Assembly: GCA_000004695.1 (NCBI GenBank)
Contig: CM000151.3
Location: 7,264,001-7,328,000, forward strand
Length of the DNA: 64,000 nucleotides
Direction: 5' to 3'
Source of the DNA: Dictyostelium discoideum
Lineage: Eukaryota
This document shows, piece by piece, positions 2,808-61,795 of the stretch. A program made the translations under genes and the position numbers. The notes under the pieces were generated by a model, which did no database searches, had not been told where the DNA came from, and saw only the letters and a program-made list of their open reading frames with translations. How positions within the stretch are numbered: the stretch's first letter is position 1; the number at the start of each line of letters is the position of its first letter.

Positions 2808-3533
2808 AAAAAAATTTTAATAATAATACTAAATAATTTCATTTTTATTATATAATTTTTTTTTTATATATTTATTTTTATTATTTTTTTTTTATTATTT
2901 TTTTTTTATTATTTTTTTTTTTATATAGAATTTTTTTATAATTCAATCTTTTAGAATTATGTCATACTATTAAGATAGGTTTATTTAATTTTTTTAATTA
3001 ATTGGGAATTATTTGTAAAAAATATATTTAAACTTTCAATATAAACAAATTGTCAAGTTTAAATATATTTTTTGCTTAGTACTTTCCAATTTATTTAAAA
3101 TAATTAAAATAAATATATTTAAATAGTATTACAATAATTAACTCTTATTTTTAATTTCTAAGAAATTGAGATTATATTTATCTCTTTTACTTTTTTATTT
3201 TTTTTTATTTATGTTTGTTTTATCTTGAGTTTTAGTTATAATTAAAAAAGTTGGAATATAAAAAATAAAATATTTAAAATAATTTTTAATAAAAAAAAAT
3301 AATAAAAAAATAATAAAAAATAATAATCAAATAAACCAACTTTAATAGCACAACCATAAAAATAAAATCACAAAAAAAATATCTAAAAATTTCGAGCTTG
3401 GGTTGTCATTTTTATTTTTGTCAATTGTCACAAAATTTATTTTTTTAATTTTTTTTTTTTTTAATAAAAAAAAAAATTGATTATAGAAAAAAAAAAAAAA
3501 TAATGGTTCAAAATTTTAATTTCACTCACAAAA

Positions 3534-9770: not shown

Positions 9771-9848
9771 TAAATACTTAAATATCATAATTGAATTTTT
9801 TAAACCACTTTTTAAATTTAAAAAATTCAATTATGATATTTAAGTGTT
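9771..9848. repeat. Hairpin inverted repeat: 28-29-bp arms with one mismatch and a 20-nt loop
   Basis: aaatacttaaatatcataattgaatttttt...aaaaaattcaattatgatatttaagtgttt. It sits in the head-to-head intergenic region between the TLC gene D start (9552, minus) and the 10148 gene start (plus). Confidence 0.85.
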
Positions 9849-10147
9849 TTTATTTTTTTGATAAAAAAAAAAAATAAAAAAAAAAAAAAAAAAATTATTA
9901 TCAATTTTGTGGATATCAATAGATATACAAAAATAAAAGATTTCCTTGTATTTTATTCGTAAAAATTTATCAACTACATAAGAACAGTAACAACTTCGCC
10001 CTAATCAACTCTAAAACAATAGTTTGCAAAAAATGTCAAAAAAAAAAAATAAAAAAAAAAACAGAAATTTTTAGCGCCAACAAAATTTTTTTTTTTTTTT
10101 TTATTTTTTTTTTTTTAATCACCACCAAAGCCAACACCACCACTACA

Positions 10148-13089: not shown

Positions 13090-13440
13090 TAATAATATTT
13101 TTTTTTTCCCAAAATTATTATTTTTTAAAAGTTGAATATAAAAAAGAAGAAATTAAGAAATTTTAAAATCACTTTTTTTTGCCTTAAAAAAGCAATAAAG
13201 TCAAAAAAATCTTCTTGAAGCGTAATAGCTTTAATCAAGTGTAGTATCTGTTCTAGAACGCTTAAAATCGTTCTGCTATCTAAGTGATAGCTTTCGAATT
13301 TAATTTTATTTTTTATTCGAGGTTTTTAGATGTTATTATTATAATATCGGCTTGCCTTTATTCATTACATCTAAAGTTGTATTCCCTCTGTATCGCACCA
13401 TTTCAGAGTCAATAAAAGAGTACTACCTCTACCTATTTAA
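13090..13440 (+). other. Conserved complex non-coding block downstream of duplicated unit copy 1 (repeated at about 17085..17430)
   Basis: It is relatively GC-rich (gaagcgtaatagctttaatcaagtgtagtatctgttctagaacgcttaaaatcgttctgctatctaagtgatagctttcgaatt...). Stop codons occur in all six frames. It holds the hairpins AAGCGT...ACGCTT and GCTATC-TAAGT-GATAGC. Confidence 0.5.
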
Positions 13441-16761: not shown

Positions 16762-17650
16762 ATGATAATTCAATTTCATGATTTTTATCTATATCTTTAT
16801 TTGTTTATTTTTTTTATTTTAGCCTATTTCCATTTGATATAATTATCAATATAATAAAAACTTTGTTTTTTTTATGTTTTTTTTTTTCTTAAGAATTTTT
16901 TGCAAGAGTTTTAGTTGCCTTTGTTAATAAATTAATTACAAAAAAAAAATATAAAATATAAATTAAAAAATAAAAAATAAAAAAAATATTTTTAGATTTC
17001 GATTTTCACTGAAAAAAAAAAAACAATTTTTATTGTTGAAATTTCATTGCTTGTTTGTTGTAATTTCTAAAGTAATAATATTTTTGTTTTTCCCAAATTA
17101 TTATTTTTTAAAAGTTGAATATAAAAAAGAAGAAATTAAGAAATTTTAAAATCACTTTTTTTTGCCTTAAAAAAGCAATAAAGTCAAAAAAAATCTTCTT
17201 GAAGCGTAATAGCTTTAATCAAGTGTAGTATCTGTTCTAGAACGCTTAAAATCGTTCTGCTATCTAAGTGGTAGCTTTCGAATTTAATTTTATTTTTTAT
17301 TCGAGGTTTTTAGATGTTATTATAATAATATAGGCTTGCCTTTATTCATTACATCTTAAGTTGTATTCGCTCTGTATCGCACCATTTCAGAGTCAATAAA
17401 AGAGTACTACCTCTCCCTATTTAATTTTAATGAAAAAAAAATTTTAGTTTGCATGGAAAAATTAAAAAGTTTTTATATTATTCACAGAAATAATTATTTT
17501 ACTCACCAACCAATAAGAAAAGAAAAATAATAAAAGAGTTTCTATATCCTCTAATTATTATTATTTTAAAAAAAAAAAAAATAAATAAAAAAAAAATAAA
17601 AAAAAAATCAAATATTTTATTTATAGAATATATTGAAAAGATTATTTAAA

Positions 17651-51143: not shown

Positions 51144-51929
51144 TTAATAATTTATTTCTAATGGTTCGAGTTTTTCTTGATTTTCAAGATCATCATCATT
51201 GTCATCATCATCACTATTATCTAAAATTAAACCAAATTTATCAATAATTGATGGTGGTGTATTTATAATATCTAATATATTTTTACTATTTTCTGGATTA
51301 AAATTGATTTGTTCATCTAAATTATTGTTTTTGTTGTTATTTTTATTATTATTATCTGTACAGGTTTTGTTGGCATTATTTGGTTGTTTTCTTTTTTTAT
51401 TATCATTATTATTATTATTTTCATTTTCATTTTCTTTATTTATTTCTAAAATTGGTGTATTTGTATTATTATTATTATTATTATTATTATTTTTATTATT
51501 GGATGTAATTTTTATATTGTTTTCACTTAATTCTTCTTTATGTTCTAAAATACCTAATGCTAAATTCTAAATTATTATTATTATTATTAAAAAGTGTTAG
51601 AGCTGAGCTAAAAAATTAATAAATATAAAAAAAGAAATAAATACCATTTGAATATATTCATCACCTTCTTTAATATTCTCTATATTAACATCTTCTTTAT
51701 TTTCAATTTTCTTTTTTAAATCAATGTTTGCTTCTTTTAATTTTGGTAAAAAATCTTTAACTCTATTTAAAACTGAACTTTCTTCCATTTTAAAGAAATT
51801 TGGTTTGGTTTTTGGTGCTTGTTGAGGTGTTATTAAAAATGGTGAAACACTTGGTTCTGTTAAACCATTATTAATTTTGGTTTTATTACTATTCTTTTCT
51901 AATTCTAATAAGTCTTTATTTACAATCAT
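51144..51929 (-). CDS. Hypothetical protein (…SVLNRVKDFLPKLKEANIDLKKK… N-terminal module, Asn/Asp-rich tail), about 235 aa
   Basis: Two exons on the minus strand: 51645..51929 (ATG at 51929, donor GTATTT, phase 0) and 51144..51566 (NLALGILEHKEELSEN...LEINY*). The plus-strand ORF 51199..51570 is the antisense low-complexity frame of exon 2. Confidence 0.45.
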
Positions 51930-52111
51930 TATTTATATATTTGTTGTTTATTATTTATTTATTTTTAAAATGTTTTTATTTTATTTATTTTATTTTTTTT
52001 TTTTTTGTTTCGTTTGTGGTGATAAAAATAAATAAAACGAGACAACCGAAAAAAGTTAAAAAAAAAAAAAAATGAAATTAAATTATGAAAAAAAAAAATT
52101 AAAAAACGAAT

Positions 52112-52149
<38 letters not shown>

Positions 52150-52226
52150 AATATTTTCAAACTGCTTTAAATAAATAAAAAAGTTCATTTAAATAAAATA
52201 AATAATTGTAAAATTTAATAATTAAG

Positions 52227-52367
52227 AAAGGTAATACCAATTTTCAATTGCCTCTTAATTTGAAAATAATAGTTAATGAAAAATGGATTATTTTAATAAT
52301 TAAAATAATCCATTATTCATAAATTATTATTTTGAAATTAAGAGGCAATTGAAAATTGGTATTACCT
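52227..52367. repeat. Near-perfect 141-bp palindrome: 44-bp arms (one mismatch) around an internally palindromic 53-bp core
   Basis: Left arm aaaggtaataccaattttcaattgcctcttaatttgaaaataat (52227..52270); right arm attattttgaaattaagaggcaattgaaaattggtattaccttt (52324..52367); core aatggattattttaataattaaaataatccatt. It lies in the head-to-head intergenic region between the 51929 (minus) and 52822 (plus) gene starts. Confidence 0.9.
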
Positions 52368-52821
52368 TTTAAAATAAATAAAAAAATTAATAATTGAAAA
52401 AATTAAAAATTAAAAAATAAATTTTTGAAGTATAATTTTATTTTCATTTATTAATTTTAACATTATATTATTAATGTTTTAGAATATTTTAAAGTTCTAT
52501 AATTGAATTTCTTTTTTTATTCGATTTAGAATTGGTGATCTTGAATTAATTGAGGTAATTATTAATGATCATCTTTTTGTTTTTGTGTTTTTTTATTAAT
52601 AAATTCCAACTTATAATAAAAAATCAAAATCTTTTTTAATGCTTTTTCCCACAAAATAAATAAAATAAATTAAATTTGATATTTTTAATGGGGATTAAAG
52701 GAGATTTCTTTTTTTTTTTTCAATTTTTTTTTTTTTTATAAAAATTTAATAATCACTTTTTTTCACTCACACTTAATATTTTTAATTTCACCATTTTTCT
52801 ATTTAAAAAAAAAAAAAAATA

Positions 52822-54082
52822 ATGAAAATTTTTATAATTATTTCTTTAATTTTAACAATTTTAATTATTCAATCAAAATCAAAAGAGTGTCCTTGTTCAA
52901 ATGTTGAGTTGTGTAAACCATTGGAAATTGGTCCAAGAAAAGAATTTATTGGATTTTCTGTAAATAGCACTTTCTATCCATACTATAATTGGGATCATTT
53001 GACAACTATTGGAATTTTTTATAGTGAAGATATTGAAGATGAATTACTTTGTATGGCTAAAACTAATGGTGTAAGATTAGTTTATAGTGCATTTTACCCA
53101 GTTGAACAATTATCAAATGAAACATATATAGATCAATGGATAAATGAAAAATTAGAACTTGTTCAAAATACATTTACTGATGGTTTAAATTTTGATGTTG
53201 AATATCCAATCACTGATCCAATCGTTGCACAACAATATACTCAATTAGTTGCTGCCACTAATAATGCTTTTAAATCAGTTAATCTTTATTATCAAATTAG
53301 TGTTGATGTGGCATGGGATGCTTCAAACTGTATAGATTATCGTTGTTATGATTATTTGGGACTTTCAAAAGCTTCTGATTTTTTAGTAGTTATGGATTAT
53401 GATATGAAGTTGGATGGATATTACTTCAAAACATGCCTTGCAAGTGCAAACTCACCACCTTCTTCAGTTTTATCTGGTATGGTAAATTTTACAAAACTTG
53501 GAATTGATGAAAGTTCATTAGTAATGGGACTACCATGGTATGGGTATGTTTTATAATGTTATTATTATTAAATTTTGTTTTTTTATTTTTTTTATTTTTT
53601 TTATTTTTTTTATTTTTTTTTAATCTCAAAAAGTAATATTTATAATTTTCATTTATTTTTTTCAAAATTCATTTTAAAAAAGATACAATTATCCATGTAT
53701 TGGCTCAAATTATACATTACAAACATTTGAATGTATTATTCCTCCTTCCAGTTATTTAGGTTATAATTGCACAGATGCATCAGGAATTGAAATTAATTAC
53801 TCAATCATTATGAATATGTTAAATGATACAGCAATACAAAATGGTGGTGTTCAATGGGATTCAGAATCAGAGTCACCATATTTTAATTTTATTGACTTAT
53901 TTTCTGGTACTCAACACCAAATGTGGTTTGATAATCCAGACTCATTAACCATTAAAGTCAATATAGCACGTACAATGAACCTTAGAGGTGTTGGTGTATG
54001 GAATATTGATCAACTTTGGGATGACCATTCTCTTTCATCTGGAATGTGGGGTGCATTAAATTCTTTCTTTAAAATTAATTAG
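52822..54082 (+). CDS. ctbs: Di-N-acetylchitobiase (glycoside hydrolase family 18, CTBS orthologue), secreted, about 373 aa
   Basis: Two exons: 52822..53543 (donor GTATGT at 53544, phase 2) and 53683..54082. It aligns with human CTBS: CPCSNVELCKPL~CPCPEPELCRPI; DVAWDASNCIDYRCYDYLGLSKASDFLVVMDYD~DVAWSPKNIDRRCYNYTGIADACDFLFVMSYD; LPWYGYNYPC~VPWYGYDYTC; MWFDNPDSLTIKVNIARTMNLRGVGVWN~VWYDNPQSISLKATYIQNYRLRGIGMWN. Confidence 0.85.
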
Positions 54083-61387: not shown

Positions 61388-61458
61388 ATCAAAAATGGAA
61401 ATTGAGACAATTAAAAATAAAAAATAAAATCAATCAATTGTCTCAATTTCCATTTTTG
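61388..61458. repeat. Perfect hairpin inverted repeat: 25-bp arms and a 21-nt loop
   Basis: atcaaaaatggaaattgagacaatt...aattgtctcaatttccatttttgat. It lies in the head-to-head intergenic region between the M28 peptidase start (60991, minus) and the CARMIL-like gene (62201, plus). Confidence 0.9.
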
Positions 61459-61795
61459 ATTAAAAAAATAAAAAAAGAAAAATAAAAAAAAAGAAAAATA
61501 AAAAATATCACAGAGTGCTTAAAGCAAAATTCATTTTAGCTTAATCATTTTTAATTTTAATATTATTTTTTTAAAAATTATTAATAGGTTTTTTAAAAAA
61601 TTATTAATTATAAAAAATGATAAATATTCCAAAAAAAATGATAAATATTCCATTTTCAGTTTTGGATTATTTACGGAAAAAAAAAAATAAAAAAATAATT
61701 CTAAATAATAAAAAAAAAAAAAAAAATTAAAATAGGAATTAATTAATTTTCAAACAATTTATTACCTTTGATTATATAAGGTATGAAAAGTAATC

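Follow-up and report, generated by a model that had tools for sequence, protein, structure and literature searches.

A near-perfect 143-bp palindrome in a Dictyostelium discoideum intergenic spacer: probable origin by local inverted duplication, and decay among its relatives

Hairpin-forming palindromes suffer asymmetric deletions, as seen in the human PATRRs, which are several hundred base pairs long, and in the quasi-palindromes of yeast. Template-switch mutations, described by the model of Löytynoja and Goldman, create whole hairpins in a single event and have given rise to miRNA genes in primates (Mönttinen et al., 2023, PMC10710096), where they are called with a rule of 80% identity to the source sequence (PMC10710096). 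Template switching also expands inverted repeats at yeast promoters, where such events are frequent and where an engineered expansion altered expression of GRE2 (Rozenfeld et al., 2026, PMC13100816). For Dictyostelium, a search of the literature turned up no report of such palindromes. Here we describe one on chromosome 2 of D. discoideum, together with its counterparts in related genomes. In our judgement it probably arose when a 71-bp segment already present in the spacer was duplicated in place in inverted orientation, a template switch being the likeliest means, and is now probably neutral, prone to deletion and free of any selected function that depends on its sequence.

The palindrome lies in an 892-bp spacer between two diverging genes (Table 1), within a stretch of 64,000 nucleotides that was analysed as a whole and that we refer to as the window. 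Its arms are complementary at 67 of 71 positions, the right arm being the reverse complement of the directly adjoining left arm, and only one base separates them. An inverted-repeat search of the window returned the same axis as the pairing analysis. The sequence begins with AAAGG, next to a left flank that ends in ATTAAG, and finishes with CCTTT, next to a right flank that opens with TAAAAT. It is 81% A+T, and the arms are of higher complexity and have more G+C than the spacer around them. The 12-mer at the centre, TAATAATTAAAA (52294-52305), occurs twice in the 64-kb window. An apparent direct relationship between the arm core ACCAATTTTCAATTGCC and ACCAATATTTTCAAACTGC, which lies just past the long T run of the spacer, is not significant, since 73 of 500 shuffles gave an equal score.

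Table 1. Features of the palindrome, its surroundings and the segments missing from related genomes (window coordinates)
Feature	Position	Strand	Remarks
DDB_G0276895 (NOPCHAP1-like)	51144..51929	-	ATG at 51929, 298 nt from the palindrome
T33 run	52114..52146	+	80 nt upstream of the palindrome, outside it
Segment missing in ACTFIY	52209..52334		126 nt: end of left flank, left arm, centre and most of right arm; TTG at both sides of the junction
Palindrome	52227..52369		143 bp
Left arm	52227..52297		71 nt; collinear with the left flank in every arm-bearing genome of the discoideum complex
Mismatch 1	52262/52334		G.G
Mismatch 2	52272/52324		G.T; G:U wobble in + strand RNA only
Mismatch 3	52275/52321		A.A
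Mismatch 4	52281/52315		A.A
Segment absent in ACTFIW and ACTFIR	52288..52291		4 nt of left arm near the centre; hairpin loop enlarged
Symmetry centre	52298..52298		single unpaired A
Right arm	52299..52369		71 nt; inverted copy; absent from ACTFIZ
Segment deleted in ACTFIW and ACTFIR	52340..52350		11 nt of right arm (AAGAGGCAATT); leaves an 11-nt bulge
GH18 gene, probable di-N-acetylchitobiase 1 (Q7KWW8)	52822..54082	+	ATG at 52822, 453 nt from the palindrome; intron 53544-53682

The symmetry is far beyond chance. Among 40 surrogate sequences generated from a first-order Markov model of the window, the longest palindrome with at most four mismatches extended over 22.1±1.3 positions per arm, with a maximum of 25, compared with the 71 observed. 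Predicted folding is correspondingly extreme. For the RNA of 52200-52396, a 197-nt segment that contains the palindrome, the predicted energies are -86.7 kcal/mol (z = -17.8) for the + strand and -77.5 kcal/mol (z = -16.8) for the - strand; the DNA fold is put at -59.2 kcal/mol (z = -18.6). When the window was scanned as 2,554 sliding segments of 150 nt, the palindrome ranked first at -84.5 kcal/mol; the mean was -19.4 (sd 7.2) and the runner-up reached -52.2. The 143-nt + strand hairpin by itself is predicted to fold at -82.5 kcal/mol at 37 C (-0.58 kcal/mol/nt) and at -105 kcal/mol at 22 C (-0.73 kcal/mol/nt).

An earlier note on this DNA, made from the sequence alone, had reported a 141-bp near-perfect palindrome at 52227-52367, the largest in the window. 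Near-perfect it is, and it gives the strongest fold of the whole window, but it ends 2 nt farther to the right; over the shorter interval the sequence is out of register and is not self-complementary as given. The earlier note had also divided it into 44-bp arms and a nested palindromic core. We find one continuous palindrome of which that core is the inner 15 bp, the two-piece appearance arising because three mismatches separate the inner part from the outer. The high complexity ascribed to the sequence and its strong capacity to form a hairpin or cruciform both hold.

Orthologous loci were located in seven other genomes through homologues of the GH18 protein, and all of them share the same gene order. 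Neighbour joining on the two flanking genes yields the topology (((((window, GCA_054883475.1), (ACTFIW, ACTFIR)), ACTFIY), ACTFIZ), D. citrinum), D. firmibasis, and the distances given below are genic distances from the window. For ACTFIY and ACTFIZ the flanks were placed by affine-gap global alignment, as automatic alignment (MAFFT) misplaces them. Neither of the two outermost species has an arm: the spacer is 505 bp in D. firmibasis (distance 0.165) and 461 bp in D. citrinum (0.127). In 'cf. discoideum' ACTFIZ (0.074), the most basal member of the complex, there is an arm in the left orientation alone, with no partner. It occupies positions 3427-3484 of that locus, is collinear with the left flank and identical to the left arm at 45 of 58 positions (78%); with a predicted fold of only -13.7 kcal/mol, the region forms no hairpin. 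The single copy of TAATAATTAAAA in the 9.2 kb of the ACTFIZ locus is located within this arm-homologous segment.

The remaining genomes carry the palindrome or parts of it. D. discoideum GCA_054883475.1 (distance 0) has all 143 bp intact and identical, including the four mismatches. Some 30 substitutions in 22 kb separate it from the window, and within the 1.5 kb from 51500 to 53000 only homopolymer lengths differ; since this independent assembly carries the identical 143 bp, the palindrome is neither an assembly artefact nor confined to a single strain. In D. discoideum ACTFIW and ACTFIR (0.029 and 0.033) there is an imperfect palindrome of 128 bp, with folds of -44 to -57 kcal/mol, that lacks two short segments of the window version (Table 1). 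In 'cf. discoideum' ACTFIY (0.045) the left arm is gone and a remnant in the orientation of the right arm, GAATTTCAGAGGCA, stands by the right flank; in the global alignment positions 2397-2414 of that locus correspond to window 52331-52347, followed by a 20-nt gap and then the right flank. The bases of AAGAGGCAATT are present in this remnant, and the 11-nt deletion of ACTFIW and ACTFIR is therefore the derived state. We note that the spacer has a second lineage-specific indel, a segment of about 70 nt within 52489-52583 (AAAGTTCTATAATTGAATTTC...GAGGTAA) that is found in the window and in ACTFIY and is missing from ACTFIW and ACTFIR.

The polarity and age of the duplication can be read from these loci. 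The left arm differs from its ACTFIZ orthologue at 13 of 58 positions, while the two arms differ from one another at only 4 of 71. The changes at 52334, 52321 and 52315, which account for three of the four mismatches, occur in the AX4-type lineage alone and only in its right arm; in the common ancestor of the four D. discoideum genomes the arms thus disagreed at a single position out of 71. Arms dating back to the ACTFIZ split should by now show some 16 differences (Poisson P = 4e-4). This argues that the one-arm locus of ACTFIZ is the state before duplication rather than the result of a later loss, on the assumption that there has been no gene conversion between the arms. Loss of a right arm in ACTFIZ could in principle have occurred. 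ACTFIZ is the only genome that represents the pre-duplication state. Both arms predate the ACTFIY split, because ACTFIY keeps a piece that is found in the right arm only. The low divergence of the arms and the ACTFIY remnant together place the duplication on the branch between the ACTFIZ and ACTFIY splits, with the left arm as source. The left arm would accordingly be the original and the right arm the copy, made in an ancestor of D. discoideum after ACTFIZ had diverged and before ACTFIY did.

The same comparison bears on whether the palindrome is a copy of a foldback transposon or MITE inserted at this locus, a reading to which we give very little credence. Its symmetry resembles that of terminal inverted repeats, it is short, and D. 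discoideum does have DNA transposons that yield small RNAs, thug-S among them. However, thug-S is an intron-containing, multicopy transposon quite unlike a 143-bp palindrome, and an insertion predicts an empty site, whereas the orthologous site in ACTFIZ is occupied by one arm collinear with the flank and that in ACTFIY by the right-arm remnant. Neither plausible boundary shows a direct repeat, so there is no target-site duplication, and the arm has no further match in the 64-kb window at up to three mismatches. The 'foldback transposon core' of the earlier note is not supported, and no second copy occurs either in the window or in the compared loci. Scans of metagenome and prokaryote genome collections with 18-mers returned 51 and 35 loci respectively, in which no exact match exceeded 22 nt, the longest imperfect alignment was 44 nt and there was no palindrome. 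These matches are ascribed to chance because none is exact beyond 22 nt and none is accompanied by a palindrome.

An inverted copy made in one step, adjoining its source with almost nothing in between, is what a template switch or fold-back during replication or repair characteristically leaves behind. In a replication template switch the nascent strand would fold back and copy either itself or the opposite strand, and a short pre-existing palindrome may have seeded the fold-back here, with which the presence of TAATAATTAAAA in ACTFIZ is consistent. Template-switch mutations are recognized by an inverted fragment of at least 15 nt derived from a nearby source, and the fragment here is 71 nt long and matches at 67 of 71 positions. 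They are further recognized by an outgroup that has the source and lacks the copy, as ACTFIZ does, its 78% identity lying just below the 80% of the primate rule, and by a better account from one event than from independent substitutions and indels, for which the 1 in 71 differences, as against some 16 expected, speaks. A double-strand break followed by fold-back repair would yield the same sequence as a template switch. The palindrome is a fresh example of an already known type of mutation, not a new type of element.

Since its formation the palindrome has changed at about the rate of its surroundings. Substitutions per aligned site amount to 5.5% in the palindrome and 4.4% in the rest of the spacer between the window and ACTFIW, to 6.3% and 4.6% between the window and ACTFIR, and to 3.1% and 2.4% between ACTFIW and ACTFIR. 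Nine arm substitutions could be placed on the tree, of which seven break a pair, one is opposite the deleted segment and one restores a pair. The restoring change, at pair 51:93, goes from T:A to C:G in ACTFIW, with the sister ACTFIR showing the C.A intermediate, and is explained equally well by compensation and by conversion between the arms. The RNA of the + strand is the more stable in the AX4 type and that of the - strand in ACTFIW and ACTFIR, such that no consistent strand preference is seen. Judged by pair-preserving changes, as is done for miRNA genes, the stem is not being maintained: one change in nine restores a pair, the stem suffers deletions and the rate is that of the flanking spacer. 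The neutral-like rate, the lack of strand preference and the deletions together make up the pattern of unconstrained, deletion-prone DNA, and we infer that the palindrome has no selected function that depends on its sequence. What has accumulated is a set of point mismatches on the AX4-type branch, short asymmetric deletions in ACTFIW and ACTFIR, and near-total deletion in ACTFIY.

The location of the palindrome in a diverging spacer, at no great distance from two start codons (Table 1), raises the question of an effect on transcription. Doubled inverted motifs such as CCAAT and CAATTG, or a cruciform or nucleosome-excluding structure, might alter expression of DDB_G0276895, of the GH18 gene or of both. 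Yeast promoters, at which template switching often lengthens inverted repeats and an engineered expansion affected GRE2 (PMC13100816), offer a precedent, and the greater complexity and G+C content of the arms relative to the surrounding spacer would fit as well. We nevertheless consider a cis-regulatory change of this type improbable, as the arms are without constraint and close relatives have either no palindrome or broken ones. The blocks of the spacer that are conserved in D. discoideum, 'cf. discoideum', D. citrinum and D. firmibasis lie elsewhere, at approximately 52022-52058 (GATAAAAATAAATAAAACGAGACAACCGAAAAAAGTT) and 52684-52720 (TTATTGGGGATTAAAGGAGATTTCTTTTTT), and these, unlike the unconstrained palindrome, are likely to be the real promoter elements of the flanking genes. 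The 'structured regulatory element' proposed in the earlier note is thus left without evolutionary support, the palindrome changing as fast as the spacer, carrying deletions in ACTFIW and ACTFIR and being almost wholly lost in ACTFIY.

A further possibility is that the palindrome is a young hairpin-RNA gene, either a proto-miRNA or a precursor of endogenous siRNAs, in which read-through from a T-rich promoter would yield a 67-bp stem to be cut by DrnB or DrnA to 21-nt RNAs. The predicted fold is the stable hairpin precursor that is looked for under the miRBase and MirGeneDB criteria as used for Dictyostelium; accepted miRNA loci of D. discoideum span -0.43 to -0.70 kcal/mol/nt, a range that its -0.73 at 22 C reaches or exceeds, and in length it falls among them. 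One of the palindrome mismatches becomes a G:U wobble on the + strand. The T33 run upstream is on the same strand and in the proximal promoter of neither gene, and starts of D. discoideum pri-miRNAs follow T-rich runs (Liao, 2018, PMC6161686); no other feature resembling a promoter could drive transcription of the + strand through the hairpin. Hairpins made by template switches are known to turn into miRNA genes once they are read through from a promoter already in place (PMC10710096), and dictyostelid miRNAs show fast turnover. Neutrality over about 3-5% divergence would be compatible with a young lineage-specific function, as young miRNA genes also evolve fast.

Several observations speak against such a gene, and we regard it as unlikely. 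The palindrome is not among the seven accepted and three rejected D. discoideum loci of Supplementary Table S3 of Edelbroek (2024, PMC11014262); no locus tabulated there shares its signature of energy and length, and no mature sequence listed there lies inside it. Matches to miRNA families in Rfam are all below threshold, the best, MIR7696, reaching 22.1 bits where the gathering score is 83. The T run stands in ACTFIZ without the palindrome and is therefore older than it, and its resemblance to the start-site motif of pri-miRNAs (Liao, 2018) is partial, the first G coming 18 nt after the run. There is, moreover, neither a surplus of pair-preserving changes nor a steady strand preference, the stem is broken in ACTFIW and ACTFIR, and the locus is lost in ACTFIY. 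That the palindrome is a hairpin-RNA gene caught just after birth by template switching, transcribed from the older T-rich promoter and diced to 21-nt RNAs, we hold to be decidedly unlikely. Were it so, it would be, as far as we have found, the first such case documented in Amoebozoa, and the broken versions in ACTFIW, ACTFIR and ACTFIY would be natural loss-of-function alleles.

Some observations may be added on the sequences involved. Searches with 17-18-mers of the arms found no match in the literature text that was searched, and none of the arm tiles occurs in the main text of Meier (2016). The cluster ddis_Cluster_1065 of Edelbroek (2024), which is 144 nt long with -0.5747 kcal/mol/nt, was considered as a possible record of the palindrome since it resembled our 37 C values of -0.574 to -0.576; the resemblance is a coincidence, because the published folds were made at 22 C, where the palindrome gives -0.73. 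The T run is of variable length, being 6 T shorter in GCA_054883475.1 and of other lengths again in ACTFIZ, ACTFIW, ACTFIR and ACTFIY.

The window has other features of related interest. A perfect inverted repeat of 26 nt and high complexity, 61389-61414 and 61437-61462 (AATCAAAAATGGAAATTGAGACAATT ... AATTGTCTCAATTTCCATTTTTGATT), encloses a 22-nt loop, ranks second among the 150-nt folds of the window (-52.2 kcal/mol) and may be another template-switch hairpin. A third inverted repeat able to form a hairpin, of fairly high complexity (AAATACTTAAATATCATAATTGAATTTTTTAAA), has 33-nt arms at 9772-9804 and 9817-9849 that are 97% complementary and separated by 12 nt. The remaining long inverted repeats are mostly low-complexity runs of A and T. 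Two genes for U2 spliceosomal RNA are found on the + strand at 13209-13423 and 17193-17407, about 4 kb apart, and score 76 and 73 bits in Rfam, where the gathering score is 46. The segment 59901-60050 is G+C-rich (51%) and folds on the - strand at -48.8 kcal/mol; it matches neither an Rfam family nor a tRNA and is probably within the coding region of a neighbouring large gene.

The palindrome and its counterparts form an unusually complete natural series, from absence in D. citrinum and D. firmibasis through one arm in ACTFIZ to the intact form in the window and GCA_054883475.1, and on to small deletions in ACTFIW and ACTFIR and near-disappearance in ACTFIY. The series indicates that a hairpin-forming sequence of 143 bp can arise in one step in an AT-rich spacer and then erode, which bears on the origin both of new hairpin-RNA genes and of fragile sites. 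The chief value of the locus lies in this series and in its being a candidate proto-hairpin-RNA locus. In annotation, neither a transposon nor a conserved regulatory element is an appropriate label for the palindrome.

Among the systems to which it can be compared, the precursors of D. discoideum miRNAs (Liao, 2018, PMC6161686; Edelbroek, 2024, PMC11014262) resemble the palindrome in being intergenic, in having a similar length and an equal or lesser stability, and in following a T-rich run; the palindrome departs from them in a stem that is almost fully paired, which is a better fit to a hairpin of the siRNA type. With the PATRRs and the quasi-palindromic fragile sites of yeast it shares an AT-rich, near-perfect sequence with virtually no spacer, and relatives that carry asymmetric deletion variants, although at 143 bp it is shorter than the PATRRs and is known as a sequence rather than by breakage or translocation. 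Like the inverted repeats of yeast promoters (PMC13100816), it lies in a spacer that contains promoters and may have extended a short prior palindrome, as TAATAATTAAAA in ACTFIZ suggests, but the expansion is much larger than typical events there. The miRNA-like stems of primates (PMC10710096) measure 30-55 nt, whereas the tract here is 71 nt with a 67-bp stem and one base between the arms, in an amoebozoan, and both the hairpin and the expansion are known from sequence. The palindrome is like these primate hairpins in consisting of an inverted copy of an adjacent source that appeared on one branch of the tree, with an outgroup that has the source and lacks the copy, and in having a near-perfect stem that would have been made by a single event and acquired its point mismatches later.
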